Positions 4,332 to 33,800 of a DNA stretch of 64,000 bases are shown piece after piece. A program made the position numbers and the translations under genes. Numbering within the stretch: position 1 is the first letter of the stretch; the number at the start of each line of letters is the position of its first letter. A model generated the notes under the pieces. That model was not told the DNA's origin. It worked only from the letters and a program-made list of their open reading frames with translations, and searched no databases. This stretch comes from an uncultured bacterium (GTDB lineage Bacteria; Omnitrophota; Omnitrophia; Omnitrophales; Abzuiibacteriaceae). The stretch is taken from the NCBI GenBank assembly GCA_964387845.1, contig CAYLXA010000009.1, positions 32,001 to 96,000 of the forward strand, read 5' to 3'.

Positions 4332-4393
4332 TTAAGTCGTAAGTGGTAAGCTAATCGAGCAACTTAAAACTTACAACTTATCACTTAAAACTT
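4332..4393. repeat. Heptamer-based palindromic intergenic element of the GTAAGTG/CACTTAC family.
   Basis: Left arm taagtcgtaagtggtaag, right arm cttaaaacttacaacttatcacttaaaacttg. Sits between the gpsA stop and the downstream hairpin. Confidence 0.75.
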
Positions 4394-5750: not shown

Positions 5751-5774
5751 TTTTAAATTAGCGTTAAGGCAAAG

Positions 5775-5840
5775 TTTTAAGTGATAAGTGGTAAGTGCTA
5801 AGTTGTTCGATTAACTTATCACTTACCATTTAAACCTTAC
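5775..5840. repeat. Heptamer-based palindromic intergenic element of the GTAAGTG family.
   Basis: ttttaagtgataagtggtaagtgctaagttg / aacttatcacttaccatttaaaccttac. Confidence 0.75.
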
Positions 5841-5845
5841 GCCTT

Positions 5846-6967
5846 TTATTGGAAACGCTCTCTCCATTTGGTAAAAATACTCTTCCGCGTTGATTCCCCT
5901 CGAACTTTGGCAAATTCTTCGAGCAATTTCTGTTCCTGACCAGACAAACGCTCGGGAACTTCCACCACGATTTTAACCAATTCATCGCCGCGCACGCCGC
6001 CGCGGACATCGGGAAAACCCTTTCCTTTGATCCGCAAAATTTTTCCGGGCTGAGTGCCGGCAGGGATTTTAAGTTTCACTTTGCCGTCCAAAGTCGGTGC
6101 TTCGATTTCGGTTCCAAGCGCGGCCTGCGCCATTGTAATTTTTGCCTCGCAAAGCACGTCGTTGGCGTCGCGCTCAAAAATCTCATGCGGCCTCACTTCG
6201 ATCATAATATAAAGATTGCCGCGCTCGCCGCCCCTTTGCCCGGCTTCGCCTTCGCCGGAAAGTTTGAGTCGAGACCCTGTATCAATCCCGGCTGGAATTT
6301 TCAAATTGAGTTTTCGCGTATGCTGAACGCGGCCGGAGCCTCTGCAATCACGGCATGCTTTTTCGATTCGCTCGCCTTCCCCGCGGCATCTTGGGCAGGT
6401 TTGCCGGATCGAGAAAAAACCCTGCGCAATCCGGACTTCGCCCATTCCTTTGCAATCCGGGCATGTTTTTTTGCTCGAACCGGGTTCTGCGCCGGATCCC
6501 GAGCAATGCGCGCAGGTTTCCATCCGCGGAATTTCAACGGCCATTTCTTTGCCGAACGCAGCCTCTTCAAATGAAATAGAAACTCGATACTCTAAATCAG
6601 AACCACGCCGGCCGCGCCGCGATCCGCCTCGGCTGCGCGATGATCCGCCTCCGAAGAAATCTTCAAAAAGGTCTCCGAAAATATCGCCGAATCCTTCAAA
6701 GTTACTTTCAAAACCGTGAAACCCCTGAAAACCTTGCCCGCCCAGCGAATGGCCGAACTGGTCATACTGCGCGCGTTTTTGTTTATCGCTCAAAACAGCG
6801 TAGGCTTCGGCGGCTTCTTTAAACTTTTCTTCCGCCGTCTTGTCGCCGGGATTCCGGTCCGGATGATATTTAAGCGCCAGCTTCCGGTAGGCTTTCTTAA
6901 TATCATCATCCGAAGCGGTTTTCGATACGCCGATTACTTCGTAGTAGTCTCTTTTGGTTGTAGCCAT
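5846..6967 (-). CDS. dnaJ: Molecular chaperone DnaJ.
   Basis: J domain (DYYEVIGV...[16 protein letters not shown]), G/F-rich region, four CxxCxGxG zinc-finger repeats, C-terminal domains. Confidence 0.95.
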
Positions 6968-6977
6968 ATTTTCCAGT

Positions 6978-7057
6978 CATAAGTGGTAAGTGATAAGTTG
7001 TAAGTAGGAAAAATAACTTACCGTTTCTCACTTAGCACTTACAACTTACCACTTAAA
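6978..7057. repeat. Heptamer-based palindromic intergenic element of the GTAAGTG family.
   Basis: cataagtggtaagtgataagttgtaagtagg / aacttaccgtttctcacttagcacttacaacttaccacttaaaac. Confidence 0.75.
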
Positions 7058-7063
7058 ACTAAA

Positions 7064-7645: not shown

Positions 7646-7650
7646 AGTGT

Positions 7651-7712
7651 TAAGCGGTAAGTTGTAAGTGGTAAGAAAAAACTTATCCCTTACCACCTAT
7701 CACTTAGCACTT
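7651..7712. repeat. Heptamer-based palindromic intergenic element of the GTAAGTG family.
   Basis: taagcggtaagttgtaagtggtaag / cttatcccttaccacctatcacttagcactt. Confidence 0.75.
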
Positions 7713-8844: not shown

Positions 8845-8850
8845 GCTTGG

Positions 8851-8926
8851 TTAAGTTGTAAGTGGTAAGTGATAAGTGCTAAGCAATTTGATTAACTTAC
8901 GACTTATCACTTATCACTTACAACTG
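8851..8926. repeat. Heptamer-based palindromic intergenic element of the GTAAGTG family.
   Basis: ttaagttgtaagtggtaagtgataagtgctaag / aacttacgacttatcacttatcacttacaactgaattaa. Confidence 0.75.
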
Positions 8927-8928
8927 AA

Positions 8929-11900
8929 TTAAGCGGCCATCGACGTGCGGAGTTCGGAGCGGTACTGATTCATGATGTCGGCGGTTAAGCCGGCAAGCCC
9001 TGTCAGCAAGTCAAATTGACGGCTCGTGGGAGTAATCAAATCATCCGGACTTTGAAGAATGCCGCGCGCAAAAAGCATTTCCGCAGTACCTTTATCGCGG
9101 CGTGAGGTGCCTAATGCATAACGCAGTTCAGACCTTGTTTCGCGGAGAATTTCCATTAATCGACGGTCGTTTTCTGCAACCGGGACCGGCTTAAATCCGG
9201 CCGCAATAAGTTCTGCATTAATCTCTTCAATCACACGAAGTTCGGAACGGGTGCTTGGCCTTGCAATTAGAACATGGCTTGGTGAAAGATTTTGCTGAAG
9301 TACGGCAATCAGCGGCCCATATTCAAACAATCCGCTCAAGGCAATCAAAGCGGTCTGCGCTTCTGCGCCATTCACCGATGACGCTTTCAACCCTAAAACT
9401 TCTGAAACTGCTGCACGCAATTCGGAGCGAGGCGCTGCGATACGGCTTAAGCTTTTTTGAACAACCGCACTTAAACGTTTTAAAGACTTTTCCTGATCCG
9501 CCACCGGATTAAGCCGCGCGAAATCATCAACGCCTCTTAATTCCGATCTGAGCTCTTCAGATTCATCGTCAGCAGCAGATTGACTGACCGCATCGTCTAA
9601 ACTCTTTTGGTTACCCTCGTTAATAGCTTCTCGAGCTTCTTGCGGATTAATATCAAACATTTCCGAAATCTCTTGGACGTCTGCAGGATCCTCGGCATCA
9701 TATGCTTTGGACCGGACTCGAACGTGCTCCGCTGCTAATTCAACCGAGGTCAATCCATGCGAATCGCCGTCTTCTAAATCCATCCGCAACTCGGACCGCG
9801 CTTCGGCAGCTTTTTGCGGCTGATCAGCCAATAGAAGTGCTTTTAAATCATTGTAAATAGAGGCGGATTGCCGAAAATCGAAGAAGTCTTTGCCATTACT
9901 ATCCTTGCTCTTTGAAAACTTATATCGAATGGCATGATGAATCTCAAGAATAATCCCGAAGACGGTTTGAAAGAGGTCAAATGCTTCGCCCTGGATTCCC
10001 GATTGCCGAAAATCAGTTGCAAACGCCGACGCTATACTATATGTGTCAACTCCCAACTTCTTTATTTTGTCCATTTCTATATCCTGCCGGAAAGCTGCGT
10101 TCAGATAATCGCGTGCAAGCTTAAAATATTCGTTCTTAAAGCCCTGAAACCGCTCAAGCCAATCTGTTTGCTCAGGATCTATTTTTGAAAGCGCAAGTTC
10201 GGTGGTTCTTTCCGCGTGATCAACAAGCTGAGTAATCAACGCTCGCATATCTTCAAGACTATAGGCCGTTGCGGTCTTTGAAGCTTTACTGTGTCCGGCA
10301 TTAGTATCTTGCGTTCCGGATTTGATTCGCCTAATTATCACAGCCGCCGCCAATCCAAGAACTCCGATAACACCGACGGCTACCTGCCCAAAACTAATCT
10401 CCGAAAAATAACCCTCAAAAGTTTCTTTCAAGCCGACGGACCGGACAATTGGCCCAAAAGCAAAAACCAGGACGCCGGCGGCAACAAACGCGCTTATCGC
10501 GAGCCACTTCGTCCGGCCGGTTAAGCTTTCAAGCGAATCCGTCCTTAATTCCGAGCGGCTACCGTAGTCGGGCCGGCTGTAAAATTGGCTCCCTTTTTGA
10601 TGGACCGTAAATCCAATCGAATGAATGAGTTGAACCGCTTCGCGCCGGTTAATGGCATATCCGAGATTGCTTGCTAATAAAATCACCTTATCAACAGTGA
10701 CTCGGCGAATATTTTTCAATTCATCTAAAACCTTTATGAAAAGATCATTCGAATTTTTCTGAGCACGTAATTCGGAGCGCGATAATTGCTCAACCGTTTC
10801 CCGAACAAATTGCGGAACTTCGCCGGTTGCACGCAACAGTTCTTTTCCAACTAACGTCCGGCGATGAAAATCAGATATCGGACGGTCACTGATGGCATCA
10901 GTAAGAGCTTTAAAAAGGTTCGGATCATTTTGTTTAAGAACCTCTAAAGATTGCGCATCAACTTGCTGACGCAATTCCGAACGGTTCAGAACGGCATTGA
11001 GGACATCACGTAAATCGGAAACGGCTTGGTCGAGATTTTCGAAGTCAATTTCTTGATCAGACCCGGCGATTTTCAATTTGGAGCCGTTCACTTCACCCTT
11101 CAGTCCGATATGCCTCAAGTTGGCTTCGACCGTCCGAGCCGTCACTTCGGGATTAAAACTCGCCACTGGCGCCAAAAATTCTTTGTCACCCGCTCTCACC
11201 TGAATTTTCCACTCCGAACCGAAGCCGGAAATCAATTCTACTTGCAATTCCGAACGTACGGATTCATTGGCCGCTTTGACAATACCCGTAAATTCATCGG
11301 CTTTGAGACTGGCGCCGCCGATTAAGCCACCGTCAATGTTCTTCTTTGCGACCAGCGAAGCCGCATTCTTTGGATTCATACTGCCGCCGTATTGAATACG
11401 CAATTTGGAAGCAACATCTTCGCCGTAAATGGAGAGAACTAGAGCGCGAATATAACGCTGGACCTCATCAGCCTGTTCGGGTGTTGCGGTTTTCCCAGTT
11501 CCGATGGCCCACACCGGCTCATAGGCAATTACGACATTCGCCATTTGTTCGGCCGTTACATCTTTCAAACCTTCGAGGATTTGTTTTTCAATCACGCCAA
11601 ATGTTTTGAACGCTTCACGCTCTTCCAGTAATTCACCAATCGCCAAAATCGGCTTTAAACCATTTTTGAGCGCGATTTTGACTTTGTCGTTGACGACCGG
11701 ATCAGACTCAGTCAGCCGATGATCAGCCGCTTTCTTTAAATTTCCGTGACGCCTTTCTGAGTGGCCGATAATGACATATTGAACACCCAAATCTTTTAAC
11801 TGAGCATAGGATATCTGGCTCGTTTGAGCGCCCGGTTCTTCAGCAGACAGATCTTGAGCACCCAACGTAAGCTGCTTGCTACCCGGATAGATTGTGGTTT

Positions 11901-18741: not shown

Positions 18742-18747
18742 GTTTTT

Positions 18748-18810
18748 AGTGATAAGTGATAAGTGGTAAGTGGTAAGCAACTTAAAACTTACCACTTACA
18801 ACTTACGACT
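18748..18810. repeat. Heptamer-based palindromic intergenic element of the GTAAGTG family, between the 5718-aa and 3270-aa genes.
   Basis: tagtgataagtgataagtggtaagtggtaag / acttaccacttacaacttacgact. Confidence 0.75.
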
Positions 18811-18816
18811 GAAAAA

Positions 18817-21800
18817 TTATGCGGCGCGTCCCAATTCGATAACGTTACGCAGTTCCGATCTTAAAGATTCCGCAATTTGAGTAATACCAAACGCATTAAA
18901 CAGCGCCTTGACTTCGCTCCGGCCGACAAACACAACCTGGCTTGCATAACGCTTCAGCATTTCGGCTGACGTTGCGTCACTTTCTTTTGAAGCAATAATC
19001 CTGAAATTCTTGGCACCCAATTTCCGAAGTTCTGAGCGCGCCTGGACAAAATCGCGCACAATCACAAAACGGTCTGAGTTTACATCCGCAACCGCGGCCC
19101 GGATGGCAGTTTCGCTGGCCGGATCAAGCGCAATGAGCGCCGTCGGATCGGCCGAATTTTCTAAAATAATCGGAAGTGCCCATAAGACATCCTCGTTAAT
19201 CAAAAGGCCTTCTGTCAGAATATTACCGACTGCCGTTTCTACCCCGGCGCCATCCTGCGCTTGCATAAATTGACGAATAGCCGCTTGAGGTTCTTCGCTT
19301 CTGGCACGGGTAAACTGCCTCCGGCCTGCTTCGACTTTCGACCTGATTCGTGTAGTAACGGCCGCAGGAATCATGGAAGACGTATCCAACGAGCCAAACG
19401 CAGAGCTCGGAACCGCAGTCAATCGCAATTCGGAACGGGTTTCTAGTTTCTGGTTTTTAGTTTCTGGTTTAAACTTGAAACTAGAGACTAGAGACTCGAA
19501 ACTTTCCTTACGAAGTTCGGAACGCTCCCACTTACCCGTCTTTTCAAGCGTGTGCTGCGCAATTGCGTGTTTAGTTTTAATCAAAGACCCCAGATCAAGT
19601 TCAAATTCCGAGGATGTTAAAGTATATGTACCCGAAAATCTGGATTCCAATTGCTGGATGCGTTCCACACCTTCCAGAACCAAAACTTTTGTCATGTTCA
19701 ACTCATGATCAGACTCAAGCCCGAGATCGATACGATGTTGGGTCCTGTTCACAACCGAAACGAGCGCAAAAAGTTCCGAGACCATTTTCCCGAATGCCAT
19801 AAAATAGCTTTGAACTTCTTTCTTATCTTTGATGGCTTTTGCCCCGCCAAACCGTTCTATAAGTTCTTCGCCGGCTTTTTCAACCAAAGCTGATACGTTC
19901 CAAACAATTTCCCAATCACGCTGAAGCGGGCTTTGGTCTGGAATATCCCAGCCTTGCAGCAATTGACGGTCATTCTTCCACACTTCGGATTCCAAATATT
20001 TGAGTACTGCCGATGCAATAACTTGCGAATAAAGGATTTCGTTGGCGCCTTCAAAAATCGTCATGACACGGGCATCCGCGTTAGTACGGGCGACTTGTTC
20101 TTCAACCATAAACCCCGCACCGCCGCGTTTTTGAACCGCTTCACTTGTCAAACGGTTCAGAACTTCAGAGCCCCACGCCTTCGCGGCCGCAGCTTCAAGC
20201 CCTGGTTCCGAAACACCGCCGTCAAAAAGCCCGGCAAGTGAATAGCTAATAGACTCAAGCGCATAGGTGTAAGCTTCCATGTCTGCAAGCGTTTCCTGAA
20301 CAGCGCCCCAATTGGCGAGCTGCGTACCGAACTGTATGCGATCGAGCGACCAATTTAAAGTTCTTTCAAATGAACGGAGCGCACCGCCCCAGCTTCCGGC
20401 TGCGACCGCCGTACGGCCGTGATTGAGAATCGACATGCCGATTTTATTGCCGTCGCCCAATTGGCCGAGCAGATTTTCCTTCGGAACCCGCGCATTCTCA
20501 AAATACACATCGACAGTCGAAGAACCATGAAGGCCTGTTTTGTGGTAGTCGTTGCTGATGGAAATGCCTGCCGCTTTGCGTGCTTCCGCATCCTTCGGGA
20601 ATTCAACGATAAAAACACTCTTCTCGTTTTCACCCGTCATCGCAAATACGGTCATAACATCCATGAAACGGCCGTTTGTGATAAACGCTTTTTCGCCGGT
20701 AATTTCATAATATTCTTCACCGGTCGTTTCATCTTTTTTGAGCACCGCTTTGGTTTTTAAAACCGATTCGCGGTTTAAGCTGTCTGAACCATGCGCGGTT
20801 TCAGTCAACGCGTAAGCGCCGATCCATTCGCCGGTCGCGAGTTTCGGCAGGTATTTCCGCTTTTGCTCTTCCGTTCCGAATTTCACAATCGGAAGCGTTC
20901 CGACACCGCCATGAACACGAACGAGAGAACCCACCGACGGATTGGCATACCACGCCCACATATCTGCCAGTGTTTTCATAATCTTTTTAAAGTTACCCAA
21001 CCCGTATTCTTCGGGAACTGACATCCCCAGCAAGCCCATCTCTCCTGCCTGCTGCAAAATGCCGCCCTCATCCTCAACTTTGACAGCGCCGCTATCAATC
21101 TTTTCGCTTTCCGGAACTACCGCGCTCTTGAAGAAATTGGCGATGGCTTCATTCATTGCATTGATTTCTTCATGACCGGCTAAATCTTCCGGAAATTGGA
21201 GCGTGCCTTCGGCCACATTGGCGCGGCCATATAATAGGAAGTCGCCGGATTTGGGCGTACTTTCGGCGAACGGTACCAGTGCTTTGTCATTCTGAGGCGC
21301 AGCCGAAGAATCTACGGTCGCAGATCCTTCGCTTCGCTCAGGATGACCGGCTTTTGCCTTATCCAGCACTTCTTTTTCCATCGCGTCCATCATTTTCAGA
21401 GTATTGGCGCGAATCAAAAGAGCGTTCTTTCCATTTCTTGCTTCATAGGTAACGGGAACGATCGGCAGTTTTTCACGCGTGACTTTGATTTTGTCAGCCG
21501 CGGGAGCAATAGCGCGGATGTCAATCACATCGCCCGGACGGATGTCATGATTAAAAGTAGCCAGATCGGTCACATTCAGTAATAAATGACCGGGAACGGC
21601 TTCCGCAGACATCCTGGCCGCTACTTTAATGGCTGCAAGAATATTGACAAGTCTCGGATCATTTGATTCGGCAATCACGCGTACACCGTTTAAATAATCT
21701 TCCGTAACCGTTACGGGCAGAAGGCCGCTTGGATTTTCATTTGGCGATGACGTATCTTGAATGCGCGGGCTTGCAGAATCCGTAAAATCAAATATCTGCT

Positions 21801-24800
21801 TCGGAACCGAGTGCGTAACACCTTCGGACCATGCTTTCGCCTGATCGATTTGCGATTGGGTGGGTTTTGAAGTATCAAACGGCTCATCGGCCGGCCTTGG
21901 TTTCATATTGGCAACGATTTCTGCCACCACTTTCCCGGCTTGATTAACAACCTGAATCTTAAGCTTCGCGACACCATTTTCAGAAATACTCATGACTTCA
22001 ATGACCGGTGTCACCACGTCGTCAAACTTCACGGGCGCTGAAAATTTCGCGCTTTCTACCGCACTACCCTCATCTCCGATGCCGATAAATTCATACCCGG
22101 GAAGCTCTTCCTGGGTACGGGCCAGCATTTTAGAAACCGTCAGAAGGCCATGTGCAACCAGAGCGCCAAATTTGGACGCTTCCGCGTATTCTTTGAGTAA
22201 GTGGAAACGGTTGCGGTCGCCTTCCATCGCGAAGAGCTTGACCATCCACTCGCGCATGATGAGCGCGTTTCCGAGAATCTTTTGGCCGGCGAATACGGAA
22301 AGTGCGTTGTCTTCCGTGCGCCCGCCCGGACGAAGCGCTAAGAGAAGTCTTGCGCGCGCCTTTGTATAACGTTCTTTTTCGGCATCGCTCAAAATACCAG
22401 GGATTTTCATGGCGCGTTCCATTTGGATAAACGGAATGCGCGCGGATGCAGCATCTACGATTTCAAGCGCGCCGGTCACAGGATCTTTGAATCCGACAGC
22501 GCCAAGGCCGCGGTCTTGATCGGCAACGGCGTAATCTTCGATAATCGCAAGGTCGCGCTCAGTTGAATTTTTCCATGCTTTTGCGTACGCTTTGCCTGCA
22601 TCACTCTTGAGCCATTCTTTCTTGGCCGCTTTGCCTTCATCCGTTTTCAAATCAAATACGGGCATCGCACCGACCGTGTCAGCGCGTTGCGGACTTAACA
22701 AGCGGTTAATTTCATCAACTTGATTGGCTTTTGCAAGTTTTCCCGCGAAACCCCAATTGGCGACACGTTCCGCTTCATGCGTTACATTTTCATCACTGGA
22801 ATAACCATCGATCGCGTCAATTTTTGAATATGCCGTGAGAGCAATAAAAAGTGAGTGATAATAATTGTAACCTTTCGTTGTCGGATCATCTTCGGCCTCA
22901 TGAACCATATTGCCGTCAACATCGAAAATCGCGGCCGTTACGCGGCGGCTTGCACGCATGATCGACTGCGTTTCCGATTCCTCAAACGCTTTTGCTTCTT
23001 GTTCGATTGCTTTAGGGTCAGAAATGCTGGGTACAATTTCAAACCCTCCCGTGAGATATCTATAATCATGTTCAAACTCGGATAGAAAACCGTCTAGCTC
23101 TCTGATTTCTTTTGCGCTTTGTGTGTTTTGATACACAATACCCGTAACAGAGGATGCGAGTAATGGGAAAATATCCTTAAGTCTTTCGATTGGATTTGAC
23201 TTTGCAGTTTCAATCCAAATAATCTTTTCATGCTCGCCCGGGAGCATCAATCCTTTAAGTTTTTGTATAGAATCCTTGAAAGAACCGTCTTGCCACCACG
23301 AAGCCGGTGCGGAATCTAAATTGATTTTAATGATATCCACCTCTGAATTCATTGCTATATTCAGAGCTTCATAGTCATTTACGTCAACACTTACGATTGA
23401 TCGTGCCAATGACACATCGCGCGGAACGAAAACTTCGGGCGGAAGAATAGGTTTGCTGTCGGCTGCCATTTTGTCGAGATCGGCCAGTTTTATTTCGGGT
23501 AATTTTTTGTAATCGTAATCCGGATGTTTGCGGATGACAGGCGGAAATTGGCCGAGGAATGGCTCCATTCCCTTCAAGTGGTTCGGATGAACGCTCCACT
23601 TGCGGTTCATGCCGATCTTGATAAATTTTTCTGTGTCGGCTGTGGTCGGCTCAACTTCAAGTTTCACGGTAATGCCGGTACCCGCCACTTTTCCGGTTTT
23701 CTTTCCGGCTTCAACGATATCGAGAAGCGCTGAGCGCATATACGGAAATTGCTCATGCTGCACTTCATTTTTCCCGCCGGTTGCGGCTGTGTAATCGACA
23801 ACGCCAAGCTGTGCTTCTTCTACTTCCGGAGCAATTGATAAAATCCGTTCAGCGTTCAAAGTTCCACCGGGAAGTTCTGTGAGCACAAATACTTTATGAG
23901 AACCGACGGGGCGATTGACCCATTTTTGTTCGGCTTGAATCGCACGCAGATTGGCAACACCGATGCGGACATCCTGCGGGCCGAATACTTTCGGCATATA
24001 AATACCGTCTATCAAATGGCCGATGGCGCGAAAGACGATGGAATAATCGCCCGCGGACCACTTGGTGCGCAGATTGTTCGGACGGAACAGAATCATCTGG
24101 TCTTTATGGAAACGCGCTTCTTCTTTTAATTGGAAGCGTCTATTGCGCGAATGAATCTCATCCCACTCGTCTTCTGACAACATCCGGTAATCCGAATAAT
24201 CGGTGTCATCCGGCAATTCAATAAGATATTTGTCGATCGGATCTTTTTCGTCGTTGGCCTGCAAAGCATTCTTTTTCAAGAAATCAACTTGCTCTTGTGT
24301 GAGGATTTCGCCCTTGAACAACCGGATCAATTGAATAATGACTTCGCGCGCAAGTTCCTTGCGGATGGTCGCTACGGCATCTTCCAAATCTAATAGAAGA
24401 ATCGGAGCCTTCATGCCCGCGCGTGCGGCAAGCAGCATGAATTTCCAGTTATCACCGGGAAACACATTTTGGACTTCGCGCGGCATGTACTCCCACGCAA
24501 GCCGTGCGGCAACTTCATCAGCCGTCACATCGGGCTTCACGACTTTCCAATTTTCGTAGCGGTAATTGAGGTCTTTCACGGCATGAGCTTCATCATTGCC
24601 AAACGCGGTCAGCAATGCCTGCTTCACTTCCGCATTCGTCACTTGATCGAGCGAAATTTCCCGTAATTCGGAACGGACAAACTCGGGGCTCTTCAATCTG
24701 TTGCGGTCAATTTTTTGAAGGTCGCCGGTGCGCGGAAGTGAGGAAACAATCACAACCCGCTTGGGTGCTTTGTAATGGGCAAGTGACTCTTTTGCGGATT

Positions 24801-27800
24801 CAATAATCTCTTCTTCCCTGCCTTTTAATGCTCCGAACCAGGCTTCGGTGACAAAAGCAACCACCACTTCATCAAAATGGCCGACCAATTCGGCAAAGTC
24901 ATCATCGGAAATAACGCCGGCCTCGCCGTGAACAACCTGATCAAAATAAGCAGGATCGTTGATTCCGACGACTGCAACTTCATTGACACCCTGAAAATTA
25001 GAAATTACCTTTTCCACTTCGCCCGGATTTACATTTTGGCTGCCGGTGATAATGACGTTTTTCGTACGGCCGGTGATGGTCACGTAACCTTCGGAATCTA
25101 TTGTCGCCAAATCACCCGTACGGACCCACGTCAGGCCGATTTTTTGAGTTAAAGCCTCTTTAGTCGCTTTCGGATCATTCCAATATTCCCTCATCACTTG
25201 CGGAGCCGAAACAATAAGCTCGCCTTCCTGACTGCCTGCAATGATGTCCCAAGTTCCCGGCTTCACAACACGCGCCACAACATCACGGTTTGGCTTTCCA
25301 ACCGTTCCGGGTTTTTCGGCGTTAATCGGGTTCGTGATGGTGCTGGTGGCTTCGGTTAATCCGTAACCTTCGATCAAGCGCGCGCCGGTTGCTTCTTCAA
25401 ACGCACCTTTTACTTTTCCGAGAGCGGAACCGCGGCTTAGACCGATCAAGCCCGGAAATTTCCGGCCTGATTGCGCCAGCGAATGGAAAATTGCGGGAAC
25501 CGCAAACAACAACTTCGCGTTTGATTCGGCCAGCGTTTGCGCCAAGCCGTCTACAAATGATGCGGAAGTTTGATTATAAGGAAGGCGGGGCGCGAGAATA
25601 ATCGGCCGGCCTTGAAGCATGCTCGCAAACACCACATGCGTTCCGTAAGTTTTCGGCTGTAAAGGAATCACGGCCGGTCCCGGCTCAACATCCTTCAGCC
25701 AATCCTGATATTGTCCGAGCGTCGCTGCAATATTCGCATGCGTCTGTGCCACAATTTTCGGAGTCCCCGAAGTTCCGGTCGATGGTGAAAGCTGCGCAAT
25801 ATTTTTTTCATAAACCGGCCTTCTGGAAGGAGCGCCGTTCGTGGGCGTATTAAAAATGTCATCGAGCACTTTCGCGGTTCCGTGGCGTAGTCTATGTTCG
25901 CCCAAATCAGAAACATAAATCCTTAAATTCGGGAATTCCTGAACAATATTTCTCAAATCATCTTTGCGGTAATAGTCAGTCAAAATCACCAACGCTTTTG
26001 CGCCGGTTTCTTTGAGATGGCGGACGATATCACTGCGGTTCCACAAAGTTTCAAACGGAACACGGACGGCGCCTGCCCGCCAAATCCCGAGGTCGACGGC
26101 AAGATCATAGGCCGAATTCGGCATCATGACGGCCACGCGGTCGCCTTTTTCAATTCCCGACCGAATGAGCTCTGCGCTGAACCGGCCGGCCCATTGGCCG
26201 AGCTGTTCGTATGTTATAGATTGATTTTCCATCGGAACCACGGCAGAAGCGCTTCTGGCCAGCCGGATGGTTTGCTTCGGATATTTTTCTATCGCATCGT
26301 CAATCATTCGCACAATGTGGTAATTGCGTGCTTCAATTTCCGATGTCACCTGCGCTCGCATTGATATAGTTGCGTGATCAGGTACCATTGGCGATGGATT
26401 TAAATCGAGGTCTTCCATATTAACCGGCTGCGGCGCATCCGAGACCCACTCTAAGAGCGAGCGCGGAATTGTGACGGAGTAGCGATCCGCAACTTCTTGA
26501 ACCAGCGACAGGACACCTGCGGCGCCGATCTCGGTCATTTGCTTAAAAATGCCTTTTTCCCATTTGAACGCGAGCCGGACGGCAACGTCGATGCCCTCTT
26601 TGGCTTCTTCGGGGCTTTCAACATCCAGAATGGCATTTTCATCGATCAACTGCCATGCCACCAAAAATACGCCGCCCAAAATAAAATCACGGACCGCGCC
26701 CACAACATTATTCGGAAGCGTTTCGCCCGCGGAAAACTCAACTCTTCGGGCTTCATTAAATTGAGATTCAAAATCAAGCAAAGACGGAGAGGGCGCATAA
26801 AATTGATCCGGATACGCGCTGTGCAGAATTCTTTGAGAGTTTGCCACAATGTCAGGCGCAATGTACTTCGCGACAAGCTCTGCCGCTCCTTGTGCGGCGC
26901 CGAGCGCCATTTTGAATGCTTCGTCAATGGTCGCGAAATTCACGTTTTCCATATTAACGCCGATGCCGCCCAAAATGGTTGCCGGAGCGCCTTCATCCGC
27001 GATCCGAAGCGCGTGATTGAGCACGGGAATAATCAAACGGCTTGTCACAAACCCCGGCTGGCTTTTTACGACAATGGCGGTTTTTCCGACCGTACGCACG
27101 AACATTTTTGCGCGCTCGACGGTTTCCGGCGAAGTTTCTCTTCCAACCACAATTTCGACCAATTCATTCACGTGCGCAGGAAGCTGAAAATGAATGCCGA
27201 TCACATATTGTTTCCGCTCGGCACTGACCGCTTCGGCAAGCTCTTCAATCGGAATCGTCGTGGTGTTGGTGGCTAAAATCGCACCTTCTTTCGCCAGCTT
27301 ATCCAATTGCCTAAAGAGCGCCTGTTTCACGGCTTTGTCTTCAACCGCAGCTTCTATAATGATACCTTTTGAAGCCACTGCTTCCGGCAAGCTGGTGCCA
27401 TAATCCAACAAGTTATCGAGCTGGCCGAGCTGGGCTTCCGATAATTTTCCATTTTCATGGGCTTTTCTAAAGCTATCTTGCAAGGTTTTCTGTGCCTTTT
27501 GAATCATTTCCGGTGAAATATCATAAAGCGACGTCCATAATTCGCCGTTCTGTGCGGCGACTTGCGCAATCCGCGATCCCATCTTCCCCGCGCCCAATAC
27601 TGCCACATAATTATCTTCATGACGCGAGCGCAACTCGGAGCGCGGCATTTGGACGAGCTCGGTGAGGACTTTCTTGCCGCCCTGAATGGAAACAAGCGTG
27701 AAGAAAACGGTCGTGCCGTTTGCTCCGGGGCGCGGCGCTTGGTCGACTAATATGATTCCGGAAGTTTTGCTTTTGGCGGCTTCAACGATGTCTGCCGCGG

Positions 27801-30800
27801 CAGCTTCGATATTGGGCGTCCAGATTTCAACCTGCTGGATACCTTCGCCGAATTTGGCAATATGTTTTGTAATCGTATTCCGCGGGCTATCAGGCGTATC
27901 CGTTAAAATATCAAGGATTCTGGGCGATCCATCAGCCCCGCCGACGGTGATTTCGAACTCATTAACGCCGACACCTGTCGGAACATCGGAAAGCGGATGA
28001 TCTTGCTCGCCCCACAACACACGGATTTTGGCAAAATTTTCGGCCGATACGGCAAGCCCCGCCGAAGCAGCGCTGGAGTGGCCGATTGCGGGCAAGAGGT
28101 CTCTTTCCACGGGAACGGAATGATTGTAAATAACCGGATTTTGGCGGACAACATCAATCAATTGGTCGCCCGCAATCGCAAAAATCCGCGCTGCATACTC
28201 TCTGATCTTGGGATCATCTGACACCAAGTCTGCGGTTGTGACGACTCGTGTTTTTGAAAACGGTTCGCGGGCATCGCGAACGAGCGGCTCGGGCTGCGGA
28301 TTTGGTCCCTCACGAAACGCTGTGACCCCCACAAGCGGCGTAAGGCCGGCAACAATTTTTGCGGTTTTCATGTCTGCTGCGCGTGTAATATCAGAAGCTG
28401 AAACGGGCACATCCTGCAGCAAGAACTTCCTGGTTGCATCAATCAATTGGCTGGTTAACTCTTCAATCACGAAGGAACCGCCCAAGGGGTCACGAACGCC
28501 CTCAAGGCCGGCTTCATATTCCAGTACGGCGACCGTGTCTTTGGCAAGCTGTTCCGCCCACGCACTCCAGCGGGTACGAATACCGAACGGAAGGTCAAAC
28601 GGACGAACTTCGATTTTCTGGGCCCCGCCCAATTTCGCGGCGAATGCCTGAAGGGCACCGCGGGCGATGTTATTCCATGATTTTTCGGTTACAAGAGATG
28701 AAGCATCCGTGCGGGCAATGATGCGAAGCTGTTGGGCTTCGGTGTCTTCGATGCCCTTCTCTTTCAGTAACGTTGCCCACAATTCCCGAGCTACACGGAA
28801 TTTTGCCACATTTTCAAGAAATTGGTTTCCTGCATTTAATCGAAAAACAACTGACCGTGCGCGCTCGGTTTGTATTTTTGAGTCATCGGCTGCGAAAACA
28901 AATTCAAGCGCTTTGTGCAGTGACCACGCCAATTCTTGCGCTGCCGTTACTCCGGTCTCACCGAGTTCAAAACCATTGACCACATAACTATTAGCCGCAT
29001 CCTCGATTTCACGATTAATTCCGCCGGTGTAAGGAAATTGTGCCGACTCCGGCTGATTAAATGACGGTTCCGGAACAGAAGCCAATTGCGCTGATTGTTC
29101 GGTCAAGTAATTCCGAAGTTTTTCATTGAAAAGCGGTACAAACTCGCCTTCCCACGGCGTTTCACGGTCCGCAACGCCGAAAACATTTTTCAAACGTTCC
29201 GTAATTTCACCGATAGTCGCATAAGCTTCGACCGCTTCGATGATGGACGGCATCAGGTTGGTTGATTCGGACTTAGCGGCGGCTTCAACCGCGTCTAACT
29301 TTTCCGCAACCAGCGTGTTATCTCTTTCTGATTTTAATTCTTCAAGCGCTTCGATTTGCTTGGTACGGAATGTATCGCCTTTCGAATCAACGCTGAAAAT
29401 TTTAACCGGCGGCGCCAACTTGTCGCCTTCGGTTTCTATATTCACACCGACTACCTTTTTTGTTCCGCTGTCAATGGCCTTGGTTTCCTCATAGGCATGT
29501 TGAAGCACGCGCTCATTTAAGTCGCTTAATACTTTGGTTAAATCGCTTTGCTTTACATATTCACCGAGCATGGACCAAACCTGGCGCTCGATACGGTCCG
29601 TCAATGTTTCCACATAACTGTTCTTGGCGCCGCCCAAAGGATCAATAAATTCGGTGATTCCGGTTTCATTCAAAACAATATTGCCGGTATCAAGAGAAAT
29701 GGCCTGGCTTTCCGCCGTCGGGATAGCAATCGCCTCATCAAACGAAGTGGTATTAAATCCCTGAGCGCCGGTAAATACCGCTGTGACGGTCCGAATCGCA
29801 TCACGGACAATATTGACATGCGGCTTATGAGCGCGTAAGTCGGTTCCGCCCGTGTAAGCCTGGACGCGCCAATGCATCGCGCGCGGATCTTGAACGCCGA
29901 AACCCTCCTTCATGATCTGCGCCCAAATGCGGCGCCCGGCACGGTATTTCGCGACTTCCTCAAGCGAATTCATTTTCACGTTCATGAAGAAGGAGACCTG
30001 CTTGGCAACCTCTTCAACATTTTGGCCGGCTTCCTGCGCCACGGTTAAATATTCGATTCCGGAAACGAACGCGGAAACCAGTTCTTCAACAGCCGTCGCG
30101 CCGGCTTCACGCGCGTGATAACCGGTCACGCTAATAGTATTGAAATAAGGGACAGCGTCTTTAGCAAAAGCAAAAATATCGCGAATCAGCCGCAAAGAAG
30201 GCTTAAGCGGGAAAATAAATGTGTCGCGGCGGCCCACAGCCATTTCTTTAATAATATCGTTCTGAACTGTTCCGCGGAGTTCTTTTACATCCACGCCGGC
30301 TTTTTTCGCGGCCGCGATGAACATGGCAAGCAAAATAGAGGCAGGTGCGTTGATTGTTTTAGAAACACCGATTCGTTTCGCGGTCAAGAGCTTCATCACT
30401 TCAGGCGTAAACAACGCTTCATAATCTTTTAATGAAGCAACCGAAATTCCGGCTTTGCCCACTTCCCCGAGTGTTAATTCGTTTGTCGGATCCAATCCTA
30501 GCTGTGTCGGGAGGTCAAACGCGGTGCTCAAGCCTGTAGCCCCTGCTTCAATTTGCTTCAAGAAAAGTTCTCGAGTTTCATCAGCAGTGCCAAAACCGGA
30601 ATACTTTCGATTAACCGGAAGCCTGCCGCCAAAACGTCCGACATACATCGACGGATGAATGCCGCGCGTAAACGGATATTGTCCGGCTTGGCCAAGCACG
30701 CCCAGCGCGATATGCAGCTCGCTCCTGTTCGCCGGCCGTCCGCTCATTTCAATGACTTGCGCAACCCACTCCGCAGGCGCGCCTACCGGTCCGCTAACCG

Positions 30801-33800
30801 CCGCTTTGGCAGCAACCGCACCGACTCGTTCTTCAGGGGTCGGCTCTTGTGTCCCGGCGTCAAAATCGTATCCCTCTAACCACGCATCCGCATCAAATCC
30901 CGAAGAAGCAGCGCGAAGCTCGCTGCGGATTCCGCGTACTTCTCTAAATTTCTGTTCGCTTTCTGCCGTAATCTCATCAACCGACCGAAGCAAACGTTTA
31001 TTAAATTCTTCCGCTGTCATTTCTTGAATCTCTTTCAGTGCGATCGCAATATCTTGATCCTGCTGCTTCTTTTGCAAACGTTCGGTTAGCCGTTTGATCA
31101 GAAACGCGCGAAATTCACGATGCTTCATGTTTGTCACATCTTCATCACCGATCGTGAGTAAAATTTGTCTGTATCGGATTCCCATGGACGGATCCAACGC
31201 GAGCGCGGTGAAATGATTAAGCATTTCCTGGGATACATCGCCCATTTCACGGAGGACGGCTTCTTTGTTAGCATCGCCAACCGTAATCGGACCCGTTGTG
31301 CCGATCAGCCCGGCCGCGTCGCTGCCAGATGTGCCTTCAAGTAATTCTTCTGCCGTATAAGGCGCCTTGGCTTCTTCAACCGGGAAAACCCATTCGCCTG
31401 CGGCGCGCTCTGCTTGAAGGCGCTGCATTTCCGCGGTAAGGTGCGATTCAAAACTTGCAACCGAAACATCTAGAAGCTTCTCATAAGCGGCATTAATTTT
31501 CTCGCCTTCTGCTTCGTTTTCTTTCGCGACTCTCTGGTAACGCTCCTGCATTTGTGTTTTGATTTCATCCAAAATTTCAGCCGGAGATTTATTTTCGATA
31601 TTAATTTCGGGAACAGTTTTTAGAATTTCGATGTAAACATCGCCGCGTGCCGGATCAGCCGCACGCGCAATCGCATAAGCTTCCGCCACCGCAAAAATAT
31701 CCGGAAGCCTATTTTCTATTCGCTCAAATAATTCATCTGTGTCCGGCTCAAGGCCCAAAGCTTCCTGCACGGCGGCAGAATCTGAATGAGCAATGGCCTG
31801 CCACGCTTCAAAAACAGCGGACGACAATTTATCTTCCGCCGGGGTTCTGGGCTCGTAGGCCGCGTAAGGATCGTAAACGATCCCCTGCTCTTTGGCGGTT
31901 TCAATCACTCGAAGCGCAAGTTTTATATTCCGGACCTGGTCACGGTGAACCTGTTTTTCATAAGCTTCGGCGATGGTTTTAATACCGCCTTCTTGAACAC
32001 CGGCCAAAATATTATTCTTGCCCGTTCCTTGTGATTCAACGGCCTTGGGCAAATCTGGCCACGAGAAAAGTTTTGCCGGAGGCGGAATAATTTCGCCGCG
32101 CATGATCCAGTCAACCACGGCAGATGCCTCAGAGCCTGACGCGTAATGCGAGCCCAGCATGACTTTGCGGCTTAGTAAAATGGAAACTTGCGTCATCCAG
32201 GTATTCGCCGCGTGATAACGAAGCGATAGCTTGGAAGTATCGTTCGGATAAATAATTTGAGAGAAGAAACCAACAAATGTGAGCGGGTTTAGAATTTGTT
32301 CACCGTCTTCACCATCCCACAGTACCACCGACACATCCGGGCCGAATGGGGTTCCGTCTTTTCGCTTTCCAAAAACTTCGCCCAGAGCCTCGCCAAAAGG
32401 CAGAACAACGGAAGTCTGATAAGCACTGAACGCTTTCTGCCGTTTTTCGAATTCACTATTTTCATCAGCGGTTGACGTGTCAGAAAGCACCTGCGGAGGG
32501 TCGGGCATCCGCTGAAAATACCGCCCGGCGCTTTCGGCAGACGCGTTTAGCTGCGCCTGAACTTTACTTAGAATTTCACGCACAACTTCTTCGGATTGGC
32601 CGAGTTCTGAAATGAATTTTTTATTTTCTAGAATGTTGCCAAAATTTCCTGATTTCACCTCATCAAAAATTGATTTACCGAATGAAAGCGGAATAATGCT
32701 CTTCATTTTTTTGTCTTTGATTCCGCGTTCTTTTAAAACAACTTCGAATGCTTGGCGCAAACCGACCACATTTTGAACATGATCAAGGCGTAAAATTCCG
32801 TCCGGCACTTTACGGCCAAATTTTGTACGTTCGTCTAATAAACCCCAGTTCCGAATGACGGCTTCTTCAGCTTGATCGCGGGCAACTACAACAACTGTCG
32901 CGCGGTTTTTCTTTGCCTCAATCACAGATTCTTTTGCACGTTCATCGGACCCTGCGACCATGACTCGGCGCATTCTGGGAACGCGGTAACGATTACTGCG
33001 TAAATTTTTAGCACGGGCAAACATCACCGAAATTGGCGCATCATCACGCGTTCCGAAATGCTCGTGAGCAAAACCTGTGGCTCCGGCTCCGAAAAATGCG
33101 GCTTGGCCGCCCATGTCATTCGGATCTTTTGGATCGCCTTCGCGAAGTGCTGCAAAATGTAATCCCGCCATCTTTTGGCCGGAAGAAAACAGCGCCTTAT
33201 TCGGGCGTGCTCCGGGACGCCCAAGACGTTCCATTGCCTTGTCTACTGCAGCCACATAACTAGCTTCATCGGAAATGGATGTACGATAAATAACTTCGTC
33301 CGCGCCATAAACTTTTCTTGCCACTTCTTCATTTTGTGCACTTGAAACGGTTGTAATGACTTGAGCGCCTCGAAATTTTGCAAGCTGAGTTGCCGGTCCA
33401 CCCGTACCGCCCGCGCCGCCCTCATTGAGAAGGACTTGATCCTTTTTAACACCAAGCACGTTTAGCGCGTGTTCAACCGTTGGATAAACAAGACCAACAG
33501 GCCCTAACTGTTCAAAATCGTAGGCGCCGTCTTCTACCCGGACAACTTCGATGGCGCTCAAAACGGTTTCCTGTCCAAAACTGCCTTCAAAAGCATTTTT
33601 AGCTTCATACGCCAAAATGCGGAAACTTCGGTGCGCTTGCGCGCTTCCGCCGAATGCGTCCAGAACCAAAAGATCATGGGTTCCGCTGAGCATAATCACC
33701 ATATCGCCGACTTTGAGCGCATTCTGCTGGGACGCCAACGACCCGACTTCGGTAACGATCATGAGGCCGGCACTGCCGAGCACGGTTCCTAATTCTTTAT

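Follow-up and report, generated by a model that had tools for sequence, protein, structure and literature searches.

How does a palindromic repeat built of tandem heptamers come to lie in frame inside a gene for a giant multi-enzyme protein, with the boundary motif RSELR on either side, and did its arrival have anything to do with that motif? The window, by which we mean the whole 64,000-nt stretch of DNA analysed, carries the host gene, ORF E, on the minus strand (18817..35973). It is a 5718-aa multi-enzyme ORF with 3HCDH, MM-CoA mutase, AMP-binding, HpcH, MaoC, and ACAD domains and nine RSEL[RH] motifs (eight RSELR and one RSELH), and its product is a singleton in a cluster look-up. With many unrelated enzyme domains tiling one polypeptide, ORF E fits the "metabolic cluster" class of multi-enzyme giant proteins known from Omnitrophota (Nielsen and Lui 2026, bioRxiv 10.64898/2026.06.07.730766). 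It resembles these proteins also in having an N-terminal signal peptide or membrane anchor and an Omnitrophota-like genome, while RSELR punctuation, an [AS]A C-terminus, and in-frame hairpins are not described in that work, whose text never uses the words motif, cleavage, polyprotein, or fusion. The DnaJ encoded in the window is 65-69% identical to that of Omnitrophota MAGs. The nearest relatives by DnaJ, L002 and L003, have ordinary-sized genes, with no RSELR and no ORF F homology upstream of hrcA; a small number of intergenic heptamer arrays do occur in L003.

The palindrome, of GTTTCTN type, occupies 64 nt of ORF E (19439..19502, minus strand). Its arms (19439-19474 and 19467-19502) are 36 nt each and 81% complementary, and both are period-7 arrays, of 4.6 and 4.7 copies by Tandem Repeats Finder. 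On the mRNA strand, arm 1 reads GTTTCGA GTCTCTA GTCTCTA GTTTCAA GTTTAAA and arm 2 C CAGAAAC TAAAAAC CAGAAAC TAGAAAC, with GTTTAAAC at the center. It makes up 64 of the 72 nt of a 24-codon spacer, KESFESLVSSFKFKPETKNQKLET (19438..19509, minus strand), and the translation runs without a stop as RSELR-KESFESLVSSFKFKPETKNQKLET-RSELR. The initial annotation had placed an in-frame palindrome between two RSELR-coding 15-mers and given this translation, and that part of it stands; the 15-mers it listed are the RSELR codon bases, one base off the codon register. The spacer is open in the ORF E frame only, stops being retained in the other two. A perfect consensus palindrome in this frame would read F*FLVSSF*FKLETRN*KLE, with three TAGs, and at exactly those three would-be TAGs stand GAG, AAG, and CAG.

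Folding differs markedly between the two strands. For the plus (antisense) strand of the palindrome, folding gives -35.3 kcal/mol (z = -8.75) and 30 pairs, 7 of them G·U, vs -16.3 kcal/mol (z = -3.2) for the mRNA strand, with 22 pairs and no G·U. All seven mismatches of the DNA palindrome are thus G·U on the plus strand and C·A on the mRNA strand. In the other seven palindromes the two strands differ by at most 9 kcal/mol, and none in the window is as asymmetric.

The two flanking motifs have distinct surroundings. RSELR copy 1 (CGT TCC GAA CTT CGT; 19510..19524, minus strand) directly follows the end of the acyl-CoA dehydrogenase module, and stand-alone ACADs of ~600 aa align with the query up to about this point. 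RSELR copy 2 (CGT TCC GAA TTG CGA; 19423..19437, minus strand) is the conserved boundary at which the C-terminal module starts (18820..19422, minus strand, ending in ...RSELRNVIELGRAA); this module is the family-wide tail with its [AS]A end. The alignment with the C-terminal module of homologue P0148 begins at copy 2 (E = 3e-10); before that module, P0148 has only one RSELR. A genome-contig scan returned no orthologue of the ACAD-plus-tail junction. When 5.8 billion proteins were searched, ACAD plus tail matched stand-alone ACADs only (32-44% identity), and the 255-aa tail had no match.

RSELR itself is a protein-level boundary motif of the giant-protein family. RSEL[RH] occurs 52 times in the window, always on the minus strand and in both frames used by the giant ORFs, and RSELR also recurs in ~27 giant proteins from other genomes. 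The 52 sites use six Arg, six Ser, two Glu, and six Leu codons; with all synonymous codons in use, a nucleotide-level element is ruled out, and TCGGAGCTCCGA, a palindromic way of coding for RSELR, is rare in the window. RSELR sites are not generally structured either (median -26.9/-26.7 kcal/mol vs -26.3/-27.2 for controls). We infer that RSELR is a putative processing or recognition site. Retroviral Gag offers an analogy in SP1 and SP2, the spacer peptides between cleavage sites of a viral polyprotein. The ORF E spacer is likewise a short peptide with the same boundary motif on both sides, between two functional modules, but unlike SP1 and SP2 it is palindrome-encoded and not conserved, and cleavage at RSELR is putative. 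A literature search for RSELR returned unrelated machine-learning papers only, and one for bacterial polyproteins synthetic-biology work only. The "IQDAH...GGFH" N-terminal domain of many family members matches PF04187 (Tiki superfamily) below threshold (E = 0.067). Four matches to the RSELR profile (P0126, P0129, P0149, and P0158) were set aside as translated tandem or CRISPR-like repeats rather than family members.

Other heptamer palindromes show where such elements usually reside. The window has ten such arrays or palindromes, and six of them fill stop-to-start gaps, all six annotated on the minus strand: one of AAGTGNT type fills the gap from the ORF E stop to the ORF F ATG (18743..18815), and the rest lie between ORF F and the hrcA promoter (8845..8934), in the hrcA/grpE (7646..7712), grpE/dnaJ (6975..7060), and dnaJ/gpsA (5771..5846) gaps, and after gpsA (4335..4393), where a classical terminator (4246-4220) follows. 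Every intergenic copy is a two-armed palindrome. They span 59-90 nt, and a length in multiples of three, proposed initially as a family property, is not general. L086, a related species, lacks the palindrome of 8845..8934 at its orthologous junction. Intrinsic termination was rejected as a role for these hairpins, which have A/T-rich stems and no U-tract and sit inside the hrcA-grpE-dnaJ operon; a terminator scan listed 4246-4220 and none of the heptamer hairpins.

Three further in-frame arrays lie in the 6161-aa gene G, on the minus strand. A GTATCTN palindrome (2915..2983), translated as SYLVSSISYLVDRRPDTRYQIPD, lies in the N-terminal domain, in a loop of variable length, with no nearby RSELR and no flanking repeat. 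Two inverted GTATCTN arrays (3265-3291 and 3377-3406, together 3265..3406) stand 89 nt apart in frame, and a single in-frame arm of four ACTTACC units (3990..4017), a stop-free arm of the intergenic type, is a small insertion relative to homologues. All three occupy poorly conserved loops of a conserved domain, away from RSELR and without flanking repeats. The peptides of the in-frame copies, KESFESLVSSFKFKPETKNQKLET and SYLVSSISYLVDRRPDTRYQIPD, are unrelated. In homologue P0145, from another genome and available as protein only, the peptide at this place, ECGMPNADCSIGLIRTPHSEIRT, reads like the translated palindrome of an unrelated heptamer.

These observations bear on the initial suggestion that RSELR-coding DNA is a preferred target of the palindromes. 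Just one of the four in-frame heptamer arrays touches RSELR. Apart from the ORF E element, RSELR sites with adjacent palindromes are all ORF-terminal, which follows from RSELR standing 5-9 codons before each stop and hairpins filling the intergenic gaps. A preference for RSELR-coding DNA is therefore not borne out.

At least three heptamer units (GTTTCTN, GTATCTN, and AAGTGNT) occur within 68 kb of this genome, and the copies cannot be aligned and have no consensus. The same 68 kb, intergenic gaps included, hold no second GTTTCTN palindrome and no near-identical copy of the ORF E element. GTTTCTR arrays are present in at least 120 metagenome contigs and are palindromic in at least nine, typically in the gap that separates a stop from the following start (L090, L125, and L131). 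Stop-free stretches across GTTTCTR palindromes in the high-GC contigs L152, L185, and L206 were judged spurious because their translations are nonsense-like.

Several known repeat classes invite comparison. REP, BIME, and REPIN elements are abundant short extragenic palindromes found after genes and within operons, with proposed roles in mRNA stability and processing; REPs are 20-40 nt long and G+C-rich, have a genome-wide consensus, are mobilised by RAYT transposases, and lack heptamer periodicity. The palindromes of the window are similarly short and similarly placed after genes and inside operons, but unlike REP and REPIN they share no consensus and have heptamer periodicity, and no RAYT-like ORF was found among the scanned ORFs of the window. 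Cyanobacterial STRR heptamers were reportedly described by Mazel et al. in 1990. The TAACTGA repeats of Beggiatoaceae, cyanobacteria, and Bacteroidetes are intergenic heptamer direct repeats in arrays of 2-6 copies, overwhelmingly intergenic and near start codons, with an inverted organisation reported for one set among 170 (PMC4679880). Stops within a TAACTGA-type unit restrict where in genes an array can stand, and the repeats might be tolerated between units of modular proteins (PMC4679880). Our palindromes share with the STRR and TAACTGA repeats the tandem 7-nt unit and a class located mainly in stop-to-start gaps, to which the ORF E element is an in-frame exception. Unlike those direct repeats, they are two-armed, use other units, several per genome, and occur in an Omnitrophota-like bacterium.

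The reading that we favor, with a probability of about 0.55, is that the ORF E element is an intergenic-type hairpin repeat tolerated in the module-boundary spacer of a double-RSELR site. One copy of a class that normally fills short stop-to-start gaps, here and in many uncultured bacteria, would have been placed in the linker from the last enzyme module, the acyl-CoA dehydrogenase, to the conserved C-terminal module. The likeliest origin would be either heptamer slippage with fold-back copying or the import of a hairpin of intergenic type, into a pre-existing short double-RSELR spacer. The palindrome probably survives in ORF E because it spans a whole number of codons (24) and its in-frame stops have been removed, and it would be translated as a low-complexity spacer peptide. 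If RSELR is a processing or recognition site, such a junk spacer could be excised or ignored. Decay of the mRNA-strand stem through C·A mismatches may have relieved an obstacle to translation.

A precedent for repeats inside genes is provided by the Rickettsia palindromic elements (RPEs), palindromic repeats of ~150 bp that occupy protein-coding genes without breaking the frame, form families in which sequence and encoded peptide are conserved, and have no tandem heptamers (PMC10969869). Like an RPE, the ORF E element is an ORF-internal hairpin repeat that keeps the frame and adds a peptide where the protein tolerates it, and there are several insertions at unrelated positions of one genome (ORF E and three in gene G). 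Unlike RPEs, it is only 64 nt long with arms of 4-5 tandem heptamers, its unit varies between copies, and the in-frame copies have no ~100-150 bp consensus with a conserved peptide.

Did the insertion also make the second motif? Short double-motif sites without heptamer arrays are common in the family (24 of 310 intervals are ≤32 aa), and duplication at double-RSELR boundaries clearly does occur in relatives. At the double sites of P0143 and P0157, the motif copies are identical over 15-23 nt around inserts of 37-48 nt; the relatives' double sites have a 60-63-nt period with a small hairpin in each, and one spacer hairpin covaries between two genomes (CCAAUC/GAUUGG vs CCAGUC/GACUGG). Within the window, ORF B carries two in-frame 76-nt cassettes (copy 1, 57221..57296; copy 2, 56402..56477; both minus strand) that are 97% identical, with two differing positions, the flanks of copy 1 being unrelated to those of copy 2. 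Copy 2 reads AELP-RAELR-GTASALPSHLA-KSELR and contains two small hairpins. With its hairpin spacer, the ORF B cassette represents another kind of double-motif site. A cassette in gene G has an 11-nt repeat, TCCGAGCTGCG, and KSELR as its second motif.

One could suppose from these cases that module boundaries are hot spots at which RSELR-coding DNA is duplicated around a hairpin insert, making new motifs and spacer peptides, though we regard this as doubtful. It is just as doubtful that the ORF E element, the ORF B cassettes, the gene G cassette, and the relatives' double sites are footprints of differing age left by one mechanism, in which case the ORF E footprint would be the 9-nt repeat plus a hairpin of 28-30 bp. 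Copying by fold-back or template switch, primed on the S-E-L-R codons with their partial self-complementarity, might be such a mechanism, as might some new insertion enzyme. The initial proposal that insertion and duplication expand the motif is partly supported by the double sites of relatives and the ORF B cassettes, while for the ORF E element the evidence of duplication is equivocal and a decayed duplication footprint is conceivable.

Might the hairpin instead be kept for a function in nucleic acid, as an antisense RNA or ssDNA structure or as an mRNA pause or processing site before the C-terminal module? With 7 C·A on the mRNA against 7 G·U antisense, the strand asymmetry could mean that it is the antisense strand that is functional. 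The stronger plus-strand fold, unmatched by other palindromes in the window, speaks for such a function, as do the small and in one case covarying hairpins of other double-RSELR spacers. Against this, no promoter-like site was found on the plus strand close to the element, and Rfam gave zero matches over the entire window on both strands. The seven mismatches, moreover, are not independent, since heptamers duplicate; they amount to about four events (p about 0.1). The TAG to CAG change, which weakens the mRNA hairpin, was forced by removal of an in-frame stop, and selection against a strong stem in a translated region predicts the same asymmetry. A nucleic-acid function is accordingly unlikely.

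The initial annotation had likened the flanks to a target-site duplication, and a mobile palindromic element that inserted in RSELR-coding DNA and duplicated a 9-bp target, CGTTCCGAA, would indeed have created the second RSELR. The 9-mer TTCGGAACG is present at 19429-19437 and 19516-19524 as claimed, so that an exact 9-nt direct repeat flanks the spacer, and the flanking 15-mers are identical at 12 of 15 nt against an ORF E mean of 9.7. The single RSELR of P0148 and the long identical copies around the inserts of P0143 and P0157 also agree with insertion, as does the TCCGAGCTGCG repeat of gene G, where KSELR is expected if the duplication starts at the Ser codon. However, TTCGGAACG, read on the opposite strand, is CGT-TCC-GAA, the R-S-E codon set used most often (at 10 of the 52 RSEL[RH] sites), and occurs 13 times in the window. 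Two sites drawn at random have the R-S-E 9-mer in common with P = 0.048, and 8.7% of non-adjacent motif pairs match exactly over at least 9 nt (P = 0.087 for unrelated pairs). At a p of about 0.09, the repeat is not beyond chance and gives no clear evidence of a target-site duplication: it probably reflects both motifs using the commonest R-S-E codons rather than a footprint of transposition. In the Leu and Arg codons of the two copies, three of six bases differ, and the repeats are placed asymmetrically, one 13 nt and the other 1 nt away from the palindrome.

Nor do the other palindromes behave as insertions of this kind. A flanking direct repeat of at least 8 nt was found at one of the nine heptamer palindromes checked, that of ORF E, where it equals the R-S-E codons; among the other eight, the best were 6-7 nt A/T-rich matches at two. 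The in-frame copies of gene G are not at RSELR, the ORF E element has no terminal inverted repeats apart from its heptamer arms, and the 68 kb hold no near-identical copy. To leave a complete upstream RSELR, the element would have had to start in frame with the Leu-Arg codons CTT CGT, and three in-frame stops would have come with a consensus copy. A mobile element with target duplication is thus distinctly unlikely.

The site might also be a former gene boundary, at which an RSELR, a few residues, and a stop were followed by an intercistronic hairpin and the next cistron until stop loss fused the genes. The same layout of RSELR, 3-9 codons, and hairpin is seen at the end of ORF E (RSELRNVIELGRAA followed by the hairpin) and of ORF F (RSELRTSMAA, the hairpin overlapping the stop), GTTTCTR palindromes elsewhere lie exactly between stop and start, and stepwise stop loss in a 3' tail would offer a neutral path. 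What makes such a fusion very unlikely is that the part downstream is the family-wide C-terminal module with its [AS]A end, belonging to the same protein in homologues, while the part upstream lacks the expected "...AA" tail and the sequence from the hairpin to the second RSELR showed nothing that could be left over from a start codon or ribosome-binding site. There is next to no chance that the palindrome is a fold-back chimera of short-read assembly: heptamer hairpins do disturb assembly, both Logan contigs (L001 and L082) stopping at ~18,800 of the window inside the E/F heptamer hairpin, but the exact 5718-aa product is recorded by both NCBI and Logan, the fetched Logan parts are 100% identical to the window (and so provide no strain variation), and the element is contig-internal, with its frame kept and its in-frame stops specifically removed.

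Beyond this locus, RSELR punctuation and the [AS]A C-terminus that accompanies it may mark the processing sites of bacterial polyproteins, and neither these nor the widespread heptamer palindromes filling the stop-to-start gaps of uncultured bacteria are described in the Omnitrophota giant-protein literature examined. If duplicative insertion at double-RSELR sites is real, it bears on how giant genes are assembled, and a hot-spot process, if true, would take part in forming and expanding the RSELR punctuation. On the tolerated-repeat reading that we prefer, the ORF E element indicates that reading frames can take in hairpin repeats of the intergenic type, the filters being whole codons, exact removal of in-frame stops, and a weaker mRNA-strand stem. 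It would extend the idea of selfish DNA in genes from Rickettsia to another phylum and to repeats of another kind, with the linkers of giant multi-enzyme proteins as places where absorbed hairpin repeats are tolerated.

The element is a 64-nt GTTTCTN heptamer palindrome (19439-19502) that lies in frame in ORF E, the 5718-aa host gene (18817-35973, - strand), between two copies of RSELR, the recurrent boundary motif of the giant multi-enzyme proteins. Everything that the initial annotation had described was present in the sequence: the ORF, the palindrome, the motifs, and the repeated 9-mer. A repeat finder placed the arms, 36 nt each and 81% complementary, at 19439-19474 and 19467-19502, and both are period-7 arrays, with 4.6 and 4.7 copies by Tandem Repeats Finder. 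On the coding strand, the first motif (CGT TCC GAA CTT CGT) is followed by AAG GAA A and the heptamers of the 5' half, GTTTCGA GTCTCTA GTCTCTA GTTTCAA GTTTAAA; then come C, the heptamers CAGAAAC TAAAAAC CAGAAAC TAGAAAC, another C, and the second motif, CGT TCC GAA TTG CGA. The region is translated as RSELR-KESFESLVSSFKFKPETKNQKLET-RSELR. Folding yielded -35.3 kcal/mol (z = -8.75) for the element as + strand RNA and -16.3 kcal/mol (z = -3.2) as mRNA, and the palindrome is far beyond chance.

ORF E stands among very long ORFs of the window, all on the - strand (1497, 2595, 524, 4513, 5718, and 3288 aa), together with gene G (6161 aa), which starts at about 4150 and extends beyond the window's start. 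After ORF F, a normal hrcA-grpE-dnaJ-gpsA block is found. Domain searches showed that the long ORFs are ordinary metabolic enzymes strung together: 3-hydroxyacyl-CoA dehydrogenase, methylmalonyl-CoA mutase, acyl-CoA synthetase, HpcH-type lyase, MaoC, and acyl-CoA dehydrogenase (ACAD) in ORF E; PEPCK and triosephosphate isomerase in ORF F; and MeaB, mutase, B12-binding, biotin carboxylase, and carboxyltransferase domains in ORF D. Their domain organization fits the "multi-enzyme metabolic cluster" class recently catalogued among Omnitrophota giant proteins (bioRxiv 10.64898/2026.06.07.730766), and DnaJ is 69% and 65% identical to its counterparts in two Omnitrophota MAGs. Signal-peptide-like N-termini, MKMKNSPAKSVQKIISAVLVLTFSFTNTIAYSE and VFVLIAFTLNSTLAYAQG (35860-35973 and 4080-4150, - strand), were observed on giant ORFs of cytoplasmic-type metabolic enzymes, and likewise in the relatives P0127, P0144, and P0148.

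The window contains 52 copies of RSEL[RH], every one of them on the - strand and in the two reading frames that the giant ORFs use (e.g., 63920-63934, 35485-35499, and 8947-8961). At these sites Arg, Ser, and Leu are each written with six codons and Glu with both of its own, and such varied synonymous codons indicate that RSELR is kept as a protein motif rather than as a stretch of DNA or RNA. Every giant ORF with its end inside the window finishes with RSELR, 5-9 residues, and a stop. A profile built from 47 sites and searched against 1.84 billion representative proteins returned 35 matches, ~27 of them giant proteins of other genomes (related proteins P0127-P0159; up to 7070 aa, with 4-14 RSELR each and the variants RAELR, RSEMR, and KSELR). 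Nearly all of these relatives have an [AS]A C-terminus, and many have an "IQDAH...GGFH" domain at the N-terminus together with a signal peptide. Four of the 35 matches were discarded as translated tandem or CRISPR-like repeats. The N-terminal domain (gene G, 2650-4150, - strand; P0130-P0159) has an invariant H (IQDAH), EG, FYxxxxxR, and GGFH after the signal peptide; Pfam matches to the Tiki/ChaN superfamily (PF04187, E = 0.067) and DUF5694 were weak and sub-threshold, and the domain might be a protease or hydrolase. Judged by its position and conservation, RSELR could serve in processing, in docking, or as a linker; the Omnitrophota giant-protein papers that we checked mention neither a motif, nor cleavage, nor polyproteins, and the [AS]A ends are likewise absent from them. 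RSESRSELR and RSEARSELR, at 58574-58588 and 1370-1384 (- strand), look like protein-level partial doubling of the motif, and the two R-S-E parts at the latter site differ in codons. The 524-aa ORF (49773-51347, - strand), which lies between giant ORFs B and D and shares 14 nt with the start of ORF D, has no RSELR, Pfam match, or [AS]A end.

The AAGTGNT type of heptamer palindrome, again two-armed, is represented six times in the window, each copy filling a stop-to-start gap (E/F, F/hrcA, hrcA/grpE, grpE/dnaJ, dnaJ/gpsA, and gpsA/G). They are A/T-rich, lie inside the operon without a U-tract, differ from the classical terminator at 4246-4220, and matched no Rfam family. The F/hrcA palindrome (90 nt, 8845-8934) is absent at the orthologous junction of a related species (L086, 1960-2000; sample SRR18669185), where the ORF F orthologue ends EYRSELRVSMAA* and is followed 12 nt on by the same promoter region (-35/-10) and a CIRCE-like inverted repeat; it follows that a short evolutionary distance suffices for these hairpins to be gained or lost. 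JGI metagenomes from soil, freshwater, and elsewhere yielded at least 120 contigs (L087-L206) with GTTTCTR/YAGAAAC arrays; at least nine of them have both arms, and some arrays form long palindromes. Their typical location is from a stop codon to the next start, as is clear in L090 (876-941), L125 (5800-5880), and L131 (8571-8748). We know of no description of this class of heptamer arrays between stop and start. Heptamer palindromes break short-read assemblies, and, by coordinate arithmetic, both Logan contigs of the region stop inside the E/F hairpin, at about 18794-18816. Whether a length of 3n is general in the family had been raised as a question; intergenic copies, of 59-90 nt, do not come in multiples of three, so that the 3n length of in-frame copies is a survival filter rather than a family trait.

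Other in-frame copies are found in gene G: a complete GTATCTN palindrome (2915-2983) translated as SYLVSSISYLVDRRPDTRYQIPD, a pair of inverted GTATCTN arrays (3265-3291 and 3377-3406) separated by 89 nt, and one lone arm of the intergenic type that is free of stops (3990-4017). None of the three features is near RSELR, and none has a flanking direct repeat. When the N-terminal domain was aligned with 17 homologues, these features fell in poorly conserved, length-variable loops; at the same loop, P0145 from another genome has the peptide ECGMPNADCSIGLIRTPHSEIRT, which we read as a putative translated palindrome of an unrelated heptamer. Compared with control positions, the neighborhoods of RSELR sites overall show no greater degree of structure.

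Each heptamer of the ORF E element was then swapped for the consensus GTTTCTA or TAGAAAC and read in the ORF E frame. The restored element reads F*FLVSSF*FKLETRN*KLE, with three TAG stops; in the real element, exactly those three positions are GAG, AAG, and CAG, and the other two frames keep stops. The mRNA strand forms 22 pairs, none of them G·U, and the antisense strand 30 pairs, including seven G·U; in the other seven palindromes, the strands differ by 9 kcal/mol or less. As heptamers duplicate, the seven mismatches probably represent ~4 events, making the strand bias suggestive (p about 0.1) rather than proof. We read the asymmetry as probable relaxation of a strong stem in translated RNA. 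That the element instead serves as a functional RNA or DNA hairpin is unlikely, and a promoter scan gave antisense-strand function no support from promoter-like sites.

The 9-mer TTCGGAACG, found at 19429-19437 and 19516-19524, had been likened to a target-site duplication. It is the reverse complement of CGT-TCC-GAA (R-S-E), the commonest codon combination at RSELR sites, and occurs at 10 of the 52 sites and 13 times in the window, against 1.45 expected. Two random RSELR sites share their R-S-E 9-mer with P = 0.048, and 8.7% of non-adjacent motif pairs in this genome (with 9 nt of flank on each side) have an exact match of at least 9 nt; the repeat alone is no evidence of transposition. The Leu and Arg codons differ between the flanking motifs (CTT CGT vs TTG CGA), and the distances of the 9-mers from the palindrome are 13 nt and 1 nt. 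A 9-bp duplication would demand an insert that itself starts in frame with Leu-Arg codons, completing the upstream motif. We consider a true duplicative insertion at the RSELR codons improbable.

Double RSELR sites recur in the family, where 24 of 310 motif-to-motif intervals are 32 aa or shorter, many of 15-16 aa, corresponding to a 60-63-nt period. Among relatives with DNA, some short double sites have nucleotide-identical motif copies, over 23 nt in P0143 (L208) and 15-20 nt in P0157 (L209), where sharing at least 15 nt has P = 0.007 against the window background; both sites have small hairpins in the spacer. P0157 also contains tandem 60-nt units (RxELREAPTELPAALSLPLA), and both motif copies in P0143 use CGGAGCTCCG and can pair with each other. 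The perfect palindrome TCGGAGCTCCGA can encode S-E-L-R, giving SELR on both strands; palindromic S-E-L-R coding is rare among the window's 52 sites. ORF B carries two 76-nt in-frame cassettes (56402-56477 and 57221-57296, - strand) with two differing positions and unrelated flanks. They encode AELP-RAELR-G[TA]AS[AV]LPSHLA-KSELR and contain two small hairpins; folding of the 141 nt around them gave z = -3.2 and -4.3. More divergent versions are present in gene G, P0153, and P0145 (loci including L001, about 20042-20140, and L207); that of gene G reads RSELR-QSGRIGTASALLASLA-KSELR with an 11-nt repeat, TCCGAGCTGCG, and the first hairpin shows one compensatory change between gene G and P0153 (CCAAUC/GAUUGG vs CCAGUC/GACUGG). 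Collectively, the identical motif copies and cassettes indicate that, in this family, stretches of DNA encoding the motif do become duplicated on either side of a short insert with a hairpin. An old event of this kind could account for the footprint at the ORF E element (9 nt; 12 of 15 identical), and so could chance.

The two motifs also mark a module boundary. The first comes after the end of the ACAD module, about where stand-alone ACAD homologues (~600 aa) stop, and the C-terminal module has its conserved start at the second: the alignment of this module in P0148, which has a single RSELR before it, begins exactly there (E = 3e-10). Contig and protein searches of the searchable collections found no orthologue of the junction. 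A gene-fusion scar at this position is unlikely. An assembly artefact is very improbable, since the identical product is recorded in two sources (a 106-kb contig at NCBI and in Logan, run SRR15237813), the portions of the Logan contigs that were retrieved are identical to the window, and stop removal is frame-specific.

We therefore favor, with a probability of roughly 0.55, the absorption of an intergenic-type heptamer palindrome into a double RSELR spacer. Such a palindrome would have entered the short spacer at a module boundary and been kept because it was 3n long and purged of in-frame stops. It would now be translated as a junk spacer, and its stem on the mRNA strand would be undergoing decay.
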